From an uncultured Spirochaetaceae bacterium (GTDB taxonomy: Bacteria > Myxococcota_A > UBA9160 > UBA4427), in the NCBI GenBank assembly GCA_964515335.1, contig CAZETS010000005.1, forward strand, positions 10,174 through 74,173: 64,000 nt of DNA, in the 5' to 3' direction. This document shows, in pieces, positions 3,162 through 32,099 of this stretch; the first letter of the stretch is position 1, and each line of letters opens with the position of its first letter. Under the pieces are notes generated by a model. It worked only from the letters and a program-made list of their open reading frames with translations, had not been told where the DNA came from and did not search any database. Both the position numbers and the translations under genes were made by a program.

Positions 3162-4376
3162 TCAGGACGCGACGGGAATCGACAGGCTGACCTCGTCGGC
3201 CTCTGCACCGGCCGCCTCGGGCTCGAGGGAGGGCGGGTCGAGGGCGGGATCCTCGAAGCGGCGCAGCGGCTTGTAGAGGGTCGAGCGCTCGACGGGCACC
3301 CGTCCGATCTCGCGGATCAGGCGCCTGAAATCCTCCGGTGCGGTGTTCTCGCCGAACATCGAGCCCGACTCGCGGCTGATGGACTCCTCCATCAGCGTGC
3401 CGCCGAAGTCGTTGGCGCCGGCGGTCAGCGCCATCTGCCCGACCTTGTGGCCCATCTTGACCCAGCTGACCTGGATGTTCTGGATGTACGGCCGCAGGAA
3501 GAGCCGCGAGACCGCCACCATCCGCAGGTCCTCGTAGACGCCCGCTCCCGGCCGCGAGCCGAGCACGTTGTAGAGCTCGTTCAGCTCGTGGATGTAGCCG
3601 AGCGGCACGAACTCCGTGAAGCCGCCGGTTTCCTTCTGCAGCTCGCGAATCAGGTTCATGTGCGCCGCCACGTGGCGCGGCGTCTCGATGTGGCCGTACA
3701 TGACGGTCGACGAGGTCGGCAGACCCAGCGCGTGTGCGGCGCGGATGATCTCCACCCAACGGTCCGTCTTGATCTTGCGCGGCGACAGGATGTTGCGGAT
3801 CTCGTCGTCGAGGATCTCGGCCGCCGTGCCGGGCAGGCTGCCGACGCCGGCGTCCATCAGCCAGCGGATGTAGTCGGGGAGCGTCATGCCGCTCTTGCGG
3901 TGCCCCCAGTCGATCTCCTCGGGCGAGTAGGCGTGCAGGTGAAGCCCCGGGAATGCCTCCTTGATGGCGAGCACCACGCGCCGGTAGTCCTCGTGGTCCT
4001 TCTGCGGATGGATGCCGCCCTGCATGCAGATCTCGGTGGCTCCGCGCGCGACGGCGTCAGCGCACTTCTCGAGCACCACCGACATGTCGTGGTCGTAGGC
4101 CTCGTCCTGGTGCTTGTGGCGCGCGAAGCCGCAGAACGAGCAGCCCACGTAGCAGACGTTCGTGAAGTTCACGTTGCGGCAGACCACGTAGCTGACGTCG
4201 TCGCCGACGTCTTCGCGGCGCGCACGATCGGCCGCCCACAAGAGGGCGTGCAGGTCGGCGCCCTCGGCGGCGAGCAGCAGCTCGGCGTCCTGCTGTGAGA
4301 GGTCTTTTCCGTCGAGGCAGGCGTCCAGGGCTCGCGCCACTCGCGGGTTCACGTCGTCGGTCATGCGTTCGAACAT
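3162..4376 (-). CDS. cofH: FO (7,8-didemethyl-8-hydroxy-5-deazariboflavin) synthase subunit 2, radical SAM
   Basis: VSYVVCRNVNFTNVCYVGCSFCGFARHK (CxxxCxxC radical-SAM cluster in the CofH/FbiC-C context), plus GGIHPQ and TVMYGHIETP. The start MFERM at 4376 overlaps the cofG stop (TGATG). The 864-aa track ORF is an upstream over-extension. Confidence 0.85.
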   Translation of the reverse strand: MFERMTDDVNPRVARALDACLDGKDLSQQDAELLLAAEGADLHALLWAADRARREDVGDDVSYVVCRNVNFTNVCYVGCSFCGFARHKHQDEAYDHDMSVVLEKCADAVARGATEICMQGGIHPQKDHEDYRRVVLAIKEAFPGLHLHAYSPEEIDWGHRKSGMTLPDYIRWLMDAGVGSLPGTAAEILDDEIRNILSPRKIKTDRWVEIIRAAHALGLPTSSTVMYGHIETPRHVAAHMNLIRELQKETGGFTEFVPLGYIHELNELYNVLGSRPGAGVYEDLRMVAVSRLFLRPYIQNIQVSWVKMGHKVGQMALTAGANDFGGTLMEESISRESGSMFGENTAPEDFRRLIREIGRVPVERSTLYKPLRRFEDPALDPPSLEPEAAGAEADEVSLSIPVAS

Positions 4377-21167: not shown

Positions 21168-24107
21168 TTATGACTTGGAGTCACACCCCGTCAACGCAGC
21201 GCCGAGCTGCACCTCGGTGGCCAGCTCGACCAGCTCGCCGGGCCCGATCCAGTGGACCTCGGTTCCCGCGGGGAATGCGTCGCCGAGGCGGCGCGAGTAG
21301 CCCCGCGAGCCCCGCGGCTCGACGATCACCACGATGCCCCGGTCGCTCTCGCCGCGGATCAGCCGGCCCGCCATCTGCTTGAGGTGCAGCAGCATCTTGC
21401 CGAGCCGGTAACGCTCGAAGGCGTTCACCCCGAGGTCGCGGATGCGGGCCTCGCGGCGGCGGCGAAGCTCGGTCGGCACCTCGAAGGGGAGCTTCTCGAT
21501 CACCACCGCCTGCAGGTCGTCGCCCGGGATGTCGACGCCCTGCCAGAAGGTTCGCGCCCCCAGCAGCACGGCGCCGCCGGGCGCGCCGCGGAAGCGACGG
21601 ACCAGCCCGGCCGGGTCGGCGGCGGCGCGCTGCGGCCACAGCACCTCGATACCGTCGCGAGCGAGCTCGACCTCGAGTCGCTCGGCGACTTCGCGCATGC
21701 GCCGGAGACTCGTGAACAGGCCCAGTGTGCGACCGCCCAGCCGGCGCGCCAGCAGGGCGATCGCCTCGGCGGTGCGGGGCACCAGCTCGTCGGGGCCCTG
21801 CGGATCGGGCAGGGCGGCGATCCGCATGTTGCTCGCGTAGTCGAAGGGGCTCGCGACCGACAGGCGATCGACCCCGAAAGCGGTGCGCTCCTCGAGTTCG
21901 AGCTCGCCGAGCGCCGCGAAGGCGTCGCCGCCCACGAACAGGCTCGCCGAGACCGCCGCGAAAGAGTCCCGGCCCTCCAGGAACTGGCGATGGAAGGAGC
22001 CCGCCGGCGATACGGGCCGAAGGGCCAGCAGCCAGCGGTCGTAGGGGACGACCAGTCGATCGAAGGCCGCGACGACTTCGGCCGCGTCGGCGCCGAACGC
22101 CGTGCGCAGCGCCTCCGCGGACTCGCGCAGCGCGCTCGCGTTGCGCTGCACGGCCGTCGGACCGTCGCCGACCGCCGTCGGCGCCTCGTCGAACGACCAC
22201 TCGGCGCGCGCGTCCAGCTCGTCGGCGAGCCTCGCCAACGACTCGAGCCGCCCGGCCGCCGCATCCGCGGCCTGCGCGGCGGCGGGAAACAACGCGTCGG
22301 CGGCCTCCGGCAGCTCGACCTCGCCGTACTCGCCCGCGCGCGCCGAGACGGTGCGCCCGATCGTGCCCAGATCGAGGGCCAGCTCGCGGCGGGTGTCGCG
22401 CACGGTCTTCTGCGCCTCGAGGCGCTGCTTGCGGGGCAGCAGCGCCGCGGCCGGCTCGGCGCCGTTCGCGGCCGGCGAAACGCCGAACACCTCGTCGATG
22501 CGTTCCATCAGCTCTTCGGGCCGCACCACCTGGCTGTAGACGTCGTCGGCCACGCCAGCGAGCTCGTGTCCCTCGTCGGCGATCACGTGACCCACGCGCG
22601 GGTAATCGGGCGGCCAGCGCAGCAGCAGGTCGTGGTTGGCGACCACCAGATGCGCCTTCGCGAGCGCGGCGCGGCGCTGCCCGAAGGGGCAGCGTTTGCG
22701 ATGCGCGCACTCCTCGCGGCTGCACTGCTCGGCACGTTGCGCGACCGAGCCGCGCACCAGGTCGCGCAGCAGCGGATGACGCGACAGCAGCGAAGCGGGC
22801 AGCGCCCCCACCTCGCCGGCCGACCGGTTGCGCGCGCAGCCGAGCAGCGTCGCGAAGGCGAGCCGATCCTCCTCGAGCAGCTCGCCATCACCGCCGCGGG
22901 CGAGCGTCTCCTGCAGCCGCTTCTCGCACACGTAGTTGGCGCGGCCCTTGATGGAGAGCGCCCGCAGATCGGCATGGCCCAGCATGCGGGCCGCAGCCGC
23001 GATGTCGTTCTCGAGCAGCTGGTCCTGGAGCAGCTTCGTGCGCGTCGAGACGACCACCGGGTCACGCTCGCCCTCCGCGGCGCGCGCCATCACGAAGGGA
23101 ATCGCGGCGGCCAGATAGGCGAGCGACTTCCCGACGCCGGTGCCGCCCTCGAGGAGCAGCGTGCCGCCGCCGGCGAGATTGCGGTGGAAGCCGCGCATCA
23201 GCTCCACCTGCTCGGCGCGCGCCCGGTAGCCGGGGAAGTGGCGGCGCCCGCGCGCTTCGTCGAGCAGCACCGCCGCGATCGCGTCCGCGTCGAAGGGCAC
23301 CGGCGGCTCGTCGCTCTCGCCGATCGCGAGAAACTGCGGCTCGTCGTGGTCGTCGGCCGAGTGCGGGGCGGAGAGCAACGCGAGCCACGGCGAGCCGGGC
23401 ACGAAGCGGCGCAGCGCGCGGGCCGCGACGCGGTAGCGCCGGGCCGCGGCCGATTCGGCGACGCGGCACAGCACGGCGAGCAGGTCGACGGCGGCCTCGC
23501 CCGCGCGGGGGCGCGCGGGCCGCTCGAGGACGCGCAGCGTCAACGCGTCGAAGCTCGAGTCGCGGACGTCGGGATGGGCGAGGGAGACGAGGTCGCGCGT
23601 GTCGAGGCAGGCGGCGCGGGCGAGCGCAGGCGAGATCTCGCGCGCGAGGAAGGGGCGCACGGCGCCCTCGTCGTGGACGACGAGGCGTCGTCCCTTCAGC
23701 GCGTCCCGAAGGTGGGGCGCTGCATCTTCGATGGCGGGCGCCGACGCGAGGTCGTCGGTGGTCAGGCCGATGCGCTCGGCCGCAGCGGCCGGACGACCGT
23801 CGCGCACGCGCAGCGGCGTGGAGAGCAAGCGCGGCGCCTCCCCGCCGGCCCCGTCGACCAGCACGAGACCGATCTCGAGGATCGCGGACGAACGCGAGTC
23901 GGCGGAGCCCGTCGTGACGAGAGCCACGACGGCGAGCGGCCCGACCGCCTCGACGAGCGGCGCCAGCGTACCGCCCACCGCGTCCGCGGCGGCCACGTGG
24001 ACGCCGTCCGCGCCGGCGAGCGGCGCGCTCTTCAGCTCGGCACGGTTCCGCGCCGGCTCCCGGGCACCCGGCTCGCCGTCAGACGTAGATCCCGCCCTTG
24101 AAGTCAC
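21168..24107 (-). CDS. dinG: DinG/Rad3-family ATP-dependent helicase with an N-terminal DnaQ-like (degenerate) exonuclease domain
   Basis: Walker A LLLEGGTGVGKSLAYL, a DEAH-like box VIADEGHEL, a Cys cluster (YVCEKR...GCARN...CSREECAHRKRCPFG), and C-terminal GRLIRGESDRGIVVIVEPR. The N-terminus reads VVALVTTG...ILEIG. The start overlaps the upstream gene by 29 nt and may lie further in. Confidence 0.85.
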   Translation of the reverse strand: MTSRAGSTSDGEPGAREPARNRAELKSAPLAGADGVHVAAADAVGGTLAPLVEAVGPLAVVALVTTGSADSRSSAILEIGLVLVDGAGGEAPRLLSTPLRVRDGRPAAAAERIGLTTDDLASAPAIEDAAPHLRDALKGRRLVVHDEGAVRPFLAREISPALARAACLDTRDLVSLAHPDVRDSSFDALTLRVLERPARPRAGEAAVDLLAVLCRVAESAAARRYRVAARALRRFVPGSPWLALLSAPHSADDHDEPQFLAIGESDEPPVPFDADAIAAVLLDEARGRRHFPGYRARAEQVELMRGFHRNLAGGGTLLLEGGTGVGKSLAYLAAAIPFVMARAAEGERDPVVVSTRTKLLQDQLLENDIAAAARMLGHADLRALSIKGRANYVCEKRLQETLARGGDGELLEEDRLAFATLLGCARNRSAGEVGALPASLLSRHPLLRDLVRGSVAQRAEQCSREECAHRKRCPFGQRRAALAKAHLVVANHDLLLRWPPDYPRVGHVIADEGHELAGVADDVYSQVVRPEELMERIDEVFGVSPAANGAEPAAALLPRKQRLEAQKTVRDTRRELALDLGTIGRTVSARAGEYGEVELPEAADALFPAAAQAADAAAGRLESLARLADELDARAEWSFDEAPTAVGDGPTAVQRNASALRESAEALRTAFGADAAEVVAAFDRLVVPYDRWLLALRPVSPAGSFHRQFLEGRDSFAAVSASLFVGGDAFAALGELELEERTAFGVDRLSVASPFDYASNMRIAALPDPQGPDELVPRTAEAIALLARRLGGRTLGLFTSLRRMREVAERLEVELARDGIEVLWPQRAAADPAGLVRRFRGAPGGAVLLGARTFWQGVDIPGDDLQAVVIEKLPFEVPTELRRRREARIRDLGVNAFERYRLGKMLLHLKQMAGRLIRGESDRGIVVIVEPRGSRGYSRRLGDAFPAGTEVHWIGPGELVELATEVQLGAALTGCDSKS

Positions 24108-29685: not shown

Positions 29686-30441
29686 CTACTCGTCCGCGCC
29701 TTCAGGCGCGGGGGTGCCGGGGGCGCCGAGGGCCTCGTCGAGGAGGCGTTGGCGTTCCTCGACCTGCATCTCGCGCAGGACGCGCAGGCGACGGCGCATC
29801 TCCTTTCGCTCGGACTCGCTCATCTGCTGCCAGCGCAGCTTGTTCTGCTCGATCCGAAGGCGATCCTCGTCCGAGAGCTCGAGCAGGTCGTGGAGGCTTT
29901 CGCGCAGCGCCGCCTGGGCGTCGTCGTCGAGATCGCGATAGGCGCGCAGGCTCTCGCGAAGCGCGCGGCGCTCGTCGAGCGACAGATCGCGCAGCTTCTC
30001 GCGCACGGCGCGGCGCTCGGCCGGGCTCAGGTCCTGGAGCCGACCGCGCAGCGCCCGGCGCTCGGCGTCGGGCAGGTTCTCGAGCTGGCGACGGCGCTCG
30101 GCGGCACGCACGCGACGGCGCGCATCGCGGCGGTCGCGAAAGGAGAGGTCGTCCGACAGCCGGCGGCGCATCGAGCGATACTCGGCCCGCATGGCGGCGC
30201 GCTCGCTCGGACCCGCCTCGCGCCACTTCTCCCGCAGCTGCTCGCGCACCTGCTCGCGCAACGCCCGGCGCTCGGCGGTGGACAGCTCGCGCCACTCCTG
30301 GCGGTCGGCGAGGCGCTGCTCGCGCACCTGATCACGCACCGCGCGGCGCGCGTCGCGGACGCTCGCGTCGACCGTCACGTCCGAGGCCGTAGCGGCGGAC
30401 GCGGCCACCATCATCAGACAAGAAAAGACGAGAAAACGCAT
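29686..30441 (-). CDS. Secreted repeat protein, DUF3106-like (six or more L-S/P-x-x-ERRALR-x-x-L repeats)
   Basis: Signal peptide MRFLVFSCLMMVAASAATA, then repeats LSTAERRALREQV / LPDAERRALRGRL / LSPAERRAVREKL / LSLDERRALRESL. The ATG overlaps the anti-sigma stop (TGATG). Confidence 0.6.
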   Translation of the reverse strand: MRFLVFSCLMMVAASAATASDVTVDASVRDARRAVRDQVREQRLADRQEWRELSTAERRALREQVREQLREKWREAGPSERAAMRAEYRSMRRRLSDDLSFRDRRDARRRVRAAERRRQLENLPDAERRALRGRLQDLSPAERRAVREKLRDLSLDERRALRESLRAYRDLDDDAQAALRESLHDLLELSDEDRLRIEQNKLRWQQMSESERKEMRRRLRVLREMQVEERQRLLDEALGAPGTPAPEGADE

Positions 30442-31262
30442 CAGAGCGCCTCCGGACCGTCGAGCCCGCCGAGCAGCTCGAGCAGCTCGAGGTTTCCGAT
30501 CACGTCGAGATCGCTGAGCACCTCGTACTCGAGCGCCACCGCGAGCTCGACGTCACTCACCGCGGCGAGCAGCGGGTCGTCGGAGGCGAGCGGGGACGCG
30601 TCTTTCACGGGCGCTTCCGCCCGGGCCAGCTGCTGTGCGGGCGGGGGGGCCGGGACGGTCGCGGGGAGCGGCTCCTCGACGGCGACCGGTGGCGCATCAG
30701 CCCGGGCGATCCGGTCGGCGCTCGGCGGGCGCGGCGCCGGCGCTGCCTGCGCGTCGGGGACGGGCGCCGGCTCGACGCGCTCGCTGACGGCGACCGGCGT
30801 CAGCGGATCGCCGTCAGCCGACGGCGCGGGATCGGTGTGCGCGATCGACGGCGCATCGGCGGGCCCGGGACCCGGTCGGGGCCCGGTGAGCAGGTAGAGG
30901 GCGAGGCCAGCGGCCAGCGCCATGCCGACCGGCGCGCGCCAGCGCCCGCGCAGCACCACGACCCGCGCGCGCCCCGGGTCGACGGCGGGCTGCGCGTCGA
31001 GCTTCGCGCGCAGGTCGGCGTGCAGCCGCGACAGCCGGTCCGGGGCCGGCAGCTCGCCGCCGAGCAGGCGCAGCTGCCCGTCGATCTCGCCGAGGCGCTC
31101 GAAGCGGGCGGCCAGCTCGGGCTCGCGAGCGAGCCGGGCACGCAGCGCGTCCGCGGCGCCGGCCTCGAGTTCGTCGTCGAGCAGCGCGGAGAGCGCCTCG
31201 TCGAGCGCTGCCTCCGGGGCGCTTTCGTCCATGGGAGGGGAGCGATCGTCGTCACGCGTCAT
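30441..31262 (-). CDS. Anti-sigma factor (RseA-N-like) with a single TM helix
   Basis: LSALLDDELEAGAADALRARLAREPELAARFERL (RseA-type N-terminus), TM helix VGMALAAGLALYLL, and a Pro/Ala-rich periplasmic tail. The ATG at 31262 is preceded by GGGAGAAGG. Confidence 0.65.
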   Translation of the reverse strand: MTRDDDRSPPMDESAPEAALDEALSALLDDELEAGAADALRARLAREPELAARFERLGEIDGQLRLLGGELPAPDRLSRLHADLRAKLDAQPAVDPGRARVVVLRGRWRAPVGMALAAGLALYLLTGPRPGPGPADAPSIAHTDPAPSADGDPLTPVAVSERVEPAPVPDAQAAPAPRPPSADRIARADAPPVAVEEPLPATVPAPPPAQQLARAEAPVKDASPLASDDPLLAAVSDVELAVALEYEVLSDLDVIGNLELLELLGGLDGPEAL

Positions 31263-31298
31263 GACCTTCTCCCGTTCGTTCCGTCTCACCGGTTCGTT

Positions 31299-31358
31299 TC
31301 ATGCTTCTCTTCATGCTTCTTTTCATGCTTCTTTTCATGCTTCTTTTCATGCTTCTCT
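31299..31358. repeat. Perfect-phase tandem repeat, 12 bp x 5 (TCATGCTTCT[C/T]T), 33% GC, flanked on both sides by CGGTTCG
   Basis: Read directly from the sequence: units start at 31299, 31311, 31323, 31335 and 31347. The flanking CGGTTCG copies are at 31290-31296 and 31359-31365. Confidence 0.95.
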
Positions 31359-31402
31359 CGGTTCGACCCGTCGTCGCAAGGGTTCCGCTTCGATCTCTGC
31401 CG

Positions 31403-32002
31403 TCAGCCCGCGGACTCGTGGGCCACCGCCCGCAGCGGCCTCGCCTCGAGGCCGCCGTCCAGCGCATCCACCCTCGACACCAGTGCACTGCGTCCACGAT
31501 GCACCAATGCCTTGACGGACTTCTCGGTCGTCTCGAGGATCGCCGCCACCTCGGCGTACGAGTGTCCTTCCGCGGCCGACAGCCAGAGCGCCATGCGTTG
31601 TCGCTCCGGCAGGCCGTCGAGCAAGCGCTCGACGGTGGCACGACGACGGCGCGACTCGACCAGGCCGTCCACGCGCGGCCGGGCATCGGCGATCACCCGC
31701 TCGTCGGCCTCCTGGTGGCGATGGCGTCGGCGCGGCCGCTTCAGCTCGTTGAGGGCCAGGTTGGTGGCGATGCGATAGAGAAAGGTCGAGAAGCGGGCGC
31801 GCGGCTCGTAGCGCTCGCGCGCACCGTGGAGCCGCAGGAACGCGTCCTGGAGCAGCTCTTCTGCGGTTCCCGTATCGCCCACCATTCGCTCCAGATACCG
31901 CAGGAGCGGACCCGCCCAGCGGTGATAGAGCCCGTCGAACGCGGAGTCGTCGCCCGCCTGGAAGGCAAGCATCAATGCGACGTCCGGGTCCGAGTCCTGC
32001 AC
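31403..32002 (-). CDS. ECF (group IV) sigma-70 factor
   Basis: Region 2: LMLAFQAGDDSAFDGLYHRWAGPLLRYL...AEELLQDAFLRL...FSTFLYRIATNLALN. Region 4: LPERQRMALWLSAAEGHSYAEVAAILETTEKSVKALVHRGR. GTG start at 32002 with GGAGG 5 nt upstream. Confidence 0.85.
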   Translation of the reverse strand: MQDSDPDVALMLAFQAGDDSAFDGLYHRWAGPLLRYLERMVGDTGTAEELLQDAFLRLHGARERYEPRARFSTFLYRIATNLALNELKRPRRRHRHQEADERVIADARPRVDGLVESRRRRATVERLLDGLPERQRMALWLSAAEGHSYAEVAAILETTEKSVKALVHRGRSALVSRVDALDGGLEARPLRAVAHESAG

Positions 32003-32099
32003 GACGACCTCCGCTGCGTCTCCAACCCCACACAACCACTTTGGTTGCGCGAACACCAGAGGGCGGCCCCCGTGGGGGATAAAACCTCGTGGGGGCCGC

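Follow-up and report, generated by a model that had tools for sequence, protein, structure and literature searches.

What does a short, AT-rich tandem repeat do between an extracytoplasmic function (ECF) sigma factor gene and the putative anti-sigma factor gene that follows it? This question is raised by a 64-kb stretch of contig CAZETS010000005.1 from an uncultured bacterium (hereafter, the window; coordinates are positions in it), in which a 140-nt spacer (31263–31402, minus strand) holding five 12-nt units separates the two genes; the sigma, anti-sigma and DUF3106 genes all lie on the minus strand. Comparison of the window with public assemblies indicates that the array is a lineage-specific, probably young minisatellite, that is, a variable-number tandem repeat (VNTR). 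It probably arose when a decayed copy of the anti-sigma start site was amplified. On balance, we favour a near-neutral product of slippage whose effect, if there is one, would be graded and exerted on anti-sigma translation.

The array (31299–31358) consists of five head-to-tail units that read TCATGCTTCT(C/T)T on the plus strand, where the two outer units carry C and the three inner ones T, exactly as originally described. On the coding (minus) strand, each unit reads as a 10-nt core, AGAAGCATGA, followed by a 2-nt linker (AA or AG here); other alleles have four or six units. Tandem Repeats Finder (TRF) reports the array at 31293–31356 (period 12, 5.3 copies, 94% matches, score 114) as the top of 70 rows in the window, and the core occurs five times in the 64 kb, every time inside the array. 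Such near-identical head-to-tail units are far above chance, as expected of a slippage-type VNTR. The array region is also by far the lowest-GC 60-mer of the window (minimum 0.35, next lowest 0.50, window GC 0.711); recomputed for the array itself, GC content is 0.367 (22/60), in place of the 33% given earlier. As the array is found in independent public assemblies, it is not an assembly artefact of the window. The two CGGTTCG heptamers said to bracket it (31290–31296 and 31359–31365, strand not assigned) are both real, but their identity varies: the sigma-proximal copy (31359–31365) reads CGAGCCG on the coding strand in two other haplotypes (B and C, with six and four units, respectively), and the anti-sigma-proximal copy (31290–31296) reads CGAACCT in one further sequence (L188). 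Because the heptamers differ between haplotypes, their identity is not a conserved feature. Other TRF repeats in the window include a 42-bp unit present twice at 23576–23658 (score 99).

The original prediction that this array would prove to be a VNTR held up. Close haplotypes carry four, five or six units, always differing by whole units and keeping the frame of the mini-open reading frame (mini-ORF) that runs through the array. Haplotype A (five units) comprises the window and 17 complete contigs from ENA, NCBI and JGI that are 99.7–100% identical, some of them the same data deposited in two archives. Haplotype B (six units) is represented by mutually identical sequences from three runs (L047–L049) and haplotype C (four units) by L050. 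Divergence is about 2.5% between haplotype A and the other two but 0.7% between B and C. Across the 2.5–3.4 kb that could be aligned, the array is the sole gap, a single one of 12 or 24 nt, between flanks that are 97.5–100% identical. The core is the same in all 15 units of haplotypes A, B and C, variation being confined to the linker (AA, AG or CA).

Two further sequences give a faint hint of variation within a population. L188, a short low-coverage scaffold from the same study as haplotype A, has four units and flanks identical to those of the window; it carries two substitutions, one inside the array (a C-to-T change in the core) and one just after it. Scaffold L001/L191 has an N-run inside the array. 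By our manual count, about 47 nt of the array are exactly periodic, and assemblers that use small k-mers can go wrong over such a stretch. The breaking of contigs at the array was also considered as proof of heterogeneity and then downgraded: two Logan contigs of one run, L190 and L194, end within the array, maybe owing to small assembly k-mers.

The comparison speaks against the earlier suggestion that the array is a stochastic switch of the ECF response, which now seems unlikely: copy number is the same in all 17 haplotype-A contigs and all three haplotype-B contigs, the unit length is divisible by 3 and the array is not spanned by any promoter. Because copy number is constant within each haplotype, the array behaves as a slowly evolving VNTR rather than a fast switch, and the locus changes on a time scale of about 1% sequence divergence. 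Many haplotype-A contigs (L003–L005 and L042–L045, one of 215 kb) end 240–930 nt into the anti-sigma gene, in or near a Pro/Ala-rich periplasmic region, which suggests that strain-level variation there breaks assemblies.

How old is the array, and how widely is it shared? The closest relatives come from TARA and other marine metagenomes; homologues at 64–74% identity are labelled as Myxococcota or Deltaproteobacteria metagenome-assembled genomes (MAGs), and the phylum assignment is based on these labels. A scan of GTDB representative genomes gave none of this species, the best sigma match having 77% identity. Within a conserved synteny (a 138-aa gene, an abhydrolase gene, sigma, anti-sigma, DUF3106 and, on the opposite strand, ThiI), the distance between sigma and anti-sigma varies. 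The two genes overlap as ATGA or GTGA in L036 (85% sigma identity), L037 (82%), L135, L136 and L137, overlap by 11 nt in L138, and lie 18 nt apart in L026–L035 and L131 and 28–30 nt apart in L133 and L134. The P0003 and P0004 lineages have a non-repetitive spacer of about 103–115 nt, L132 has one of 118 nt and most other orthologues fall between −4 and 30 nt. Alignment shows the ATGA of the window (31262) to be the homologue of the ancestral stop/start overlap. Since the nearest outgroups, L036 and L037, have the GTGA/ATGA overlap, the 140-nt spacer is the derived state. The orthologues provide a natural series for the loss of sigma/anti-sigma coupling, from the ATGA overlap through 18–30 nt and 103–118 nt to 140 nt with an array. 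When TRF was run over about 110 fetched loci, a spacer array appeared only in the 90% sigma cluster of the window and in none of about 85 orthologous loci. Absent from all other lineages examined, the array is therefore not a conserved regulatory device.

Several relatives show features of their own around these junctions. In the P0003 lineage (L006–L015), a 10-codon upstream ORF (uORF; ATGCTCGAC...CGATCGTGA) lies about 60–103 nt past the sigma stop, and its stop overlaps the GTG start of the anti-sigma gene (GTGA); the same 103-nt spacer forms a hairpin predicted to sequester the ribosome-binding site (RBS; z = −1.7) and has a 1-nt indel polymorphism between samples (GACGACTC versus GACACTC). 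The 118-nt spacer of L132 (L132:3077–3194; Deltaproteobacteria MAG MED660, 64% sigma identity) is independent, AT- and purine-rich, with many ATGs and with ATGAAATAAGATG directly at the anti-sigma start. The closest outgroup has a 17-bp tandem repeat of 3.4 copies, GACGGCTCTTGCGGGCT, at the junction of the 138-aa and abhydrolase genes (L036:1459–1515), and tandem repeats between genes may arise repeatedly in this clade. In the P0011 lineage (L026–L031), a 12-nt coding repeat of three copies, CGAGTGACGAGG, lies in the anti-sigma gene at about 3684–3725, the product being called as 230, 232 or 234 aa depending on the sample.

The source of the unit may lie at the anti-sigma start itself. The left flank and first unit (CGAACCGAGAGAAG-CATGA) align locally with the anti-sigma start region CGAACGGGAGAAGGTCATGA at a score of 21 (shuffle P = 0.011), which 0.3% of genomic windows reach in the same alignment, and they also resemble the L037 junction GAGAGCCGCATGA. 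The Shine-Dalgarno (SD) region of the anti-sigma gene (GGGAGAAGG, then TC and ATG; 31265–31273, minus strand) is homologous to the SD–ATGA junction of L037. The likeness to the SD–ATGA start suggests that the array is an amplified, decayed copy of the start site, and such a duplication would explain why each unit is a purine-rich stretch followed by ATGA. A pattern scan of JGI metagenomes, with two tandem cores as the query, found at least 80 unrelated contigs (L051–L130; GC 0.22–0.66), mostly with apparent KKHD/EKHE-type coding repeats. In these unrelated organisms, tandems of AGAAGCATGA+NN appear to encode His-rich charged tracts of the (K/E)KH(D/E) type, with up to 18 units in L129. A dedicated repeat family or mobile element was considered and rejected: the metagenome matches listed all lie in unrelated contexts, and the heptamers, which could be taken for a target-site duplication, are not conserved between haplotypes.

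What could a ribosome make of the array? The mini-ORF is present as first described, running from ATG 31350 through MKRSMKRSMKRSMKRSMKRTGETERTGEGHDA to TGA 31254–31252. Predicted to span 32 codons from its first AUG (31252–31350, minus strand), it has five in-frame AUGs (31350, 31338, 31326, 31314 and 31302) and terminates 11 nt inside the anti-sigma gene. It shares 11 nt with the anti-sigma start (ATGACGCGTGA, 31262–31252), an overlap of constant length in all alleles, and the mini-ORF is intact in every allele because the unit is 12 nt long and the flanks are identical. Of the other frames, that of the anti-sigma gene meets a TGA in each unit, and the third, which is that of the sigma gene, reads EKHEKKHE.... 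The AUGs of the array follow AAGAAG at 1-nt spacing, which is not a functional SD arrangement; the sigma and anti-sigma genes have canonical SDs (GGAGG and GGGAG, respectively) at 5–6 nt. Initiation at the array AUGs would have to rely on lack of structure. When the 2.4-kb operon mRNA is modelled by local folding, the array comes out as its most accessible stretch, with a mean unpaired probability of 0.70 versus 0.37 for the transcript. The array is unpaired in the centroid structure, and the fold of the spacer does not differ significantly from that of shuffled sequences (z = −0.14). The first array AUG lies 50 nt past the sigma stop. At the other end, the mini-ORF stop is close to the anti-sigma start, with an 11-nt overlap that is near or at the edge of the termination–reinitiation range (PMC10666635). 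The mini-ORF may be translated, which would plausibly have an effect on the anti-sigma gene.

Scans of the spacer gave no Rfam family (a chance mir-572 match at E = 0.83 was the only one) and found no sigma-70-type promoter or terminator. An RBS-sequestering hairpin that a uORF could open (GGGAG..GUCAUG/CGUGAC..CUCCC) appears in the minimum-free-energy and centroid folds, yet was set aside, as it is no stabler than shuffled sequences (z = +0.5 to +0.7).

The identity of the flanking genes bears on any regulatory reading, and here the ECF sigma/anti-sigma context proposed originally is supported. The sigma gene (31403–32002, minus strand; GTG start at 32002 with GGAGG 5 nt upstream, TGA stop at 31405–31403) is clearly of the ECF type: its 199-aa product has sigma-2 and sigma-4 domains only (Pfam Sigma70_r2, PF04542, and Sigma70_r4_2, PF08281) and scores 92 bits with NCBIfam sigma70-ECF (TIGR02937; cut-off 42.9). 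The identical product is called on 21 public contigs. The putative anti-sigma gene (30441–31262, minus strand; 273 aa, ATG at 31262, SD GGGAG) encodes one transmembrane helix and an LSALLDDEL motif, but its product had no match in a scan of Pfam and NCBIfam. It is, however, the positional orthologue of proteins with weak zf-HC2/RseA_N similarity: six of eight such orthologues have zf-HC2 matches below the curated cut-off (one also RseA_N), all at an LSALLDGEL motif. Its N terminus (MTRDDD) aligns with those of the orthologues and the C-terminal motif is conserved, so that the 273-aa product can soundly be taken as a probable anti-sigma factor, short of demonstrated family membership. The DUF3106 gene (29686–30441, minus strand; 251 aa) starts within the anti-sigma stop, overlapping it by 1 nt (TGATG). 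This overlap (30437–30446, minus strand) keeps tight coupling at the anti-sigma/DUF3106 junction, whereas it is lost at the sigma/anti-sigma junction; in relatives, the gene calls of this pair likewise abut or overlap. Inside the DUF3106 gene, TRF finds 12- and 33-bp periodicity at 30217–30326 (scores 57 and 91), which fits a repetitive ERRALRE-type protein sequence. An apparent length polymorphism of DUF3106 (251 versus 299 aa in L002) was dismissed as artefactual, being caused by Ns in the scaffold.

A putative ECF-type promoter (32022–32050, minus strand) precedes the sigma gene and is composed of GCGCAACC (32050–32043), 14 nt and GGGTTGG (32028–32022). Eight lineages (the window, L006, L016, L026, L036, L037, L047 and L131) share the motif GCGCAACC-N14-GGGTT(G/C) at a constant distance ahead of sigma, with CTGTTT or GTGTTT in two. 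This conservation and the resemblance to ECF promoters make it the probable autoregulated ECF promoter for sigma factors of this group. Between the abhydrolase stop and this promoter is a GC-rich inverted repeat, GGCCCCCACGAGG TTTTAT CCCCCACGGGGGCC (32065–32097, minus strand). The spacer itself contains a box, GCGGAACC + CTTGCGACGACGGGTCG (31364–31388, minus strand), of which the TGCGACGA(C)GG(G)TCG part is common to the 103–115-nt P0003/P0004 spacers; the box resembles the sigma promoter, with a −10-like GGGTC that is 3 nt too close.

These observations can be assembled into a history that we think somewhat probable. The ancestor would have had a sigma stop overlapping the anti-sigma start (ATGA), and the two genes would then have drifted apart in this clade. 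The SD–ATGA junction may have been duplicated, its upstream copy decaying and a 12-nt piece of it expanding head to tail, by replication slippage, to four to six copies. The operon mRNA would then carry some 60 nt of purine-rich, single-stranded array just upstream of the anti-sigma RBS, in which four to six AUGs, all in one frame, would start a single short ORF that terminates 11 nt into the anti-sigma gene. Coupling between genes requires overlaps or very short distances and is lost at 20–38 nt (PMC10666635), so that a 140-nt spacer cannot itself couple sigma and anti-sigma; short ORFs are able to deliver ribosomes to an overlapping downstream start (PMC12548453). The effect of the array on fitness is most likely small, and any action would probably pass through translation, with the array serving as a landing pad for ribosomes or as a uORF that delivers ribosomes to the anti-sigma start or disturbs them there. 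The outcome would be a graded, heritable shift in the sigma:anti-sigma ratio, not an on/off switch. A neutral microsatellite, one of the options raised originally, is fully compatible with the data.

Some points weigh against a near-neutral slippage product. The array is kept in all haplotypes of the species, none of which has zero or one unit, and each allele preserves the core and all of its AUGs. Selection, instead of youth and concerted evolution, could lie behind this. The P0003 uORF with its GTGA overlap hints that translation across a long spacer may matter. The similarity to the start site is only moderately significant and was noticed post hoc, and, judged from sequence, an effect size of zero and a large one would both be compatible with what we see.

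The main rival is a selected uORF that acts as a coupler or rheostat: after the loss of ATGA, the mini-ORF would be the chief path of ribosomes to the anti-sigma start, as they terminate at UGA 31254–31252 and re-initiate at AUG 31262, and unit number would set anti-sigma output, and with it the ECF threshold, stepwise and heritably. We regard this as possible but rather unlikely. The constant 11-nt overlap of the mini-ORF stop with the anti-sigma start, the accessibility of the array in the mRNA model and the resemblance of its units to copies of a real start site are all as such a uORF would have them, as is the one common linker change, AAA to AAG, which is synonymous in the mini-ORF frame; the preserved frame itself is automatic with a 12-nt unit. 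Also in favour, the P0003 lineage has an independent 10-codon uORF (GTGA overlap) together with a stable RBS hairpin (z = −1.7) that such a uORF could open. Ribosome delivery by a uORF and a precedent in mycobacterial interspersed repetitive units (MIRUs) are described in PMC12548453. The array AUGs, however, lack the correctly spaced SD of the sigma and anti-sigma genes (AAGAAG, 1 nt, AUG), and coupling to sigma is missing, the first AUG lying 50 nt past its stop. The anti-sigma gene of the window has a good SD of its own and an RBS hairpin no stabler than shuffles (z = +0.5), and therefore needs no help with unfolding. The P0004 lineage is without such a uORF, and the array is missing outside one species. 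The fuller version of this idea, in which ribosome delivery was rebuilt after the loss of ATGA coupling by amplified copies of the start site that form a multi-AUG uORF of variable copy number, so that a count of four, five or six units heritably fixes the sigma:anti-sigma ratio and, through it, the threshold of the ECF stress response as a VNTR-made translational rheostat, we hold to be unlikely.

The 12-mer might instead be a multi-site target for an RNA-binding protein such as Hfq, or for a DNA-binding regulator acting between the two genes. The distal face of Hfq binds A-R-N triplets, and each unit offers AAA-AGA-AGC, within what would be five to six identical, regularly spaced, purine-rich sites that are predicted to be single-stranded and whose core stays constant in the three main haplotypes while the linker varies. 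But AUG breaks the A-R-N run in every unit, the GGA motifs of CsrA sites are lacking, a 12-bp period fits no common DNA-binding geometry (10.5–11 bp) and there is no palindrome beyond CATG. With no candidate binding protein named, and the array missing from all relatives that have the same sigma/anti-sigma system, so that no conserved regulator–site pair is evident, a binding platform is very unlikely. We consider it highly unlikely that the spacer contains a promoter, possibly of this ECF sigma (GCGGAACC ... GGGTCG, 31388–31364), with the array as the 5′ leader of a separate anti-sigma/DUF3106 mRNA, as in the MIRU-containing senX3–regX3 spacer. That intergenic region does have promoter activity (PMC4213456), and GCGGAACC agrees with GCGCAACC, the conserved −35-like element of the sigma promoter; its −10-like GGGTC, however, follows after 11 nt instead of the 14 nt that are invariant in eight orthologous promoters, the −35-like element is not conserved in P0003/P0004 spacers, and the region after the sigma gene shows neither a sigma-70-type promoter nor a terminator. 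An internal ECF promoter was rejected as a candidate for its spacing, off by 3 nt, and for the lack of conservation of the element. Least credible is that the array encodes, or once encoded, a C-terminal tail of sigma, such that read-through of UGA-C would add a charged, His-rich extension of (E/K)KHE repeats. The sigma frame past the stop does read RQRSKRNPCDDGSNREKHEKKHEKKHEKKHEEKHETNR*, the 144 nt (48 codons) from the sigma stop to ATGA are in phase, and tandems of the same 12-mer are widespread in metagenomes as apparent KKHD/EKHE-type coding repeats; being in phase has a 1-in-3 chance, though, all haplotypes have two in-frame stops, both linker substitutions are non-synonymous in the sigma frame, and in the P0003/P0004 lineages, where there is no array, the sigma stop occupies the homologous position.

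Which known systems does the locus resemble? It agrees in every essential with the intergenic VNTRs or minisatellites of bacteria (the loci used in multiple-locus VNTR analysis): near-identical short units head to tail, whole-unit differences between close strains, conserved flanks, variants at edges or linkers and the sole indel of the region. Particular to it are the position between ECF sigma and anti-sigma genes and an AT-rich unit in a 71% GC genome. Phase-variable contingency loci of Neisseria and Haemophilus have simple-sequence repeats in promoters or ORFs. Like these, the array is a slippage-prone repeat near a regulatory junction. Unlike them, it has a unit that is a multiple of 3, lies between genes, outside any ORF or mapped promoter spacer and with no promoter spanning it, so that a change in copy number shifts neither a frame nor the −35/−10 spacing, and it is stable within haplotypes.

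The closest precedent had been overlooked in the earlier claim that no such example is described: the MIRU array in the mycobacterial senX3–regX3 spacer (PMC12548453, PMC4213456). MIRUs (Supply et al. 1997, summarized in PMC12548453 and PMC4213456) are apparently mobile repeats found in many mycobacteria, with an ORF coupled at −4 nt; at senX3–regX3 the units are 77 and 53 bp long (PMC4213456). Both arrays are variable-number tandem repeats in a two-gene signalling operon with a short ORF that is oriented like the operon and extends into the beginning of the downstream regulator gene, and MIRU copy number and unit type differ between strains just as copy number varies here. The array of the window is nevertheless not a member of that family: in place of long units at many genomic sites, it has a 12-bp unit at one locus in 64 kb, apparently derived locally from the anti-sigma start site, and in place of a −4-nt junction, one continuous multi-AUG ORF with an 11-nt overlap and no coupling to the upstream gene. 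Termination–reinitiation coupling (PMC10666635, PMC6728339) describes the ancestral sigma/anti-sigma junction (L036, L037 and L135–L137) and the present TGATG junction of anti-sigma and DUF3106. The mini-ORF stop is likewise close to the anti-sigma AUG; in contrast to this type of coupling, sigma and anti-sigma are 140 nt apart, against a loss at 20–38 nt, and the mini-ORF overlaps by 11 nt instead of 1, 4 or 8.

If the array marks a slippage hot spot only, its use would be practical: it could serve to tell apart strains of an uncultured marine Myxococcota-like population, and it flags a site at which assemblies may break or units be miscounted. Should copy number alter anti-sigma translation, the locus would be a compact natural case of heritable, stepwise tuning of the sigma:anti-sigma ratio. 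It would also join the mycobacterial MIRUs as an independent second example of short ORFs, carried by repeats, that feed a regulator gene downstream.

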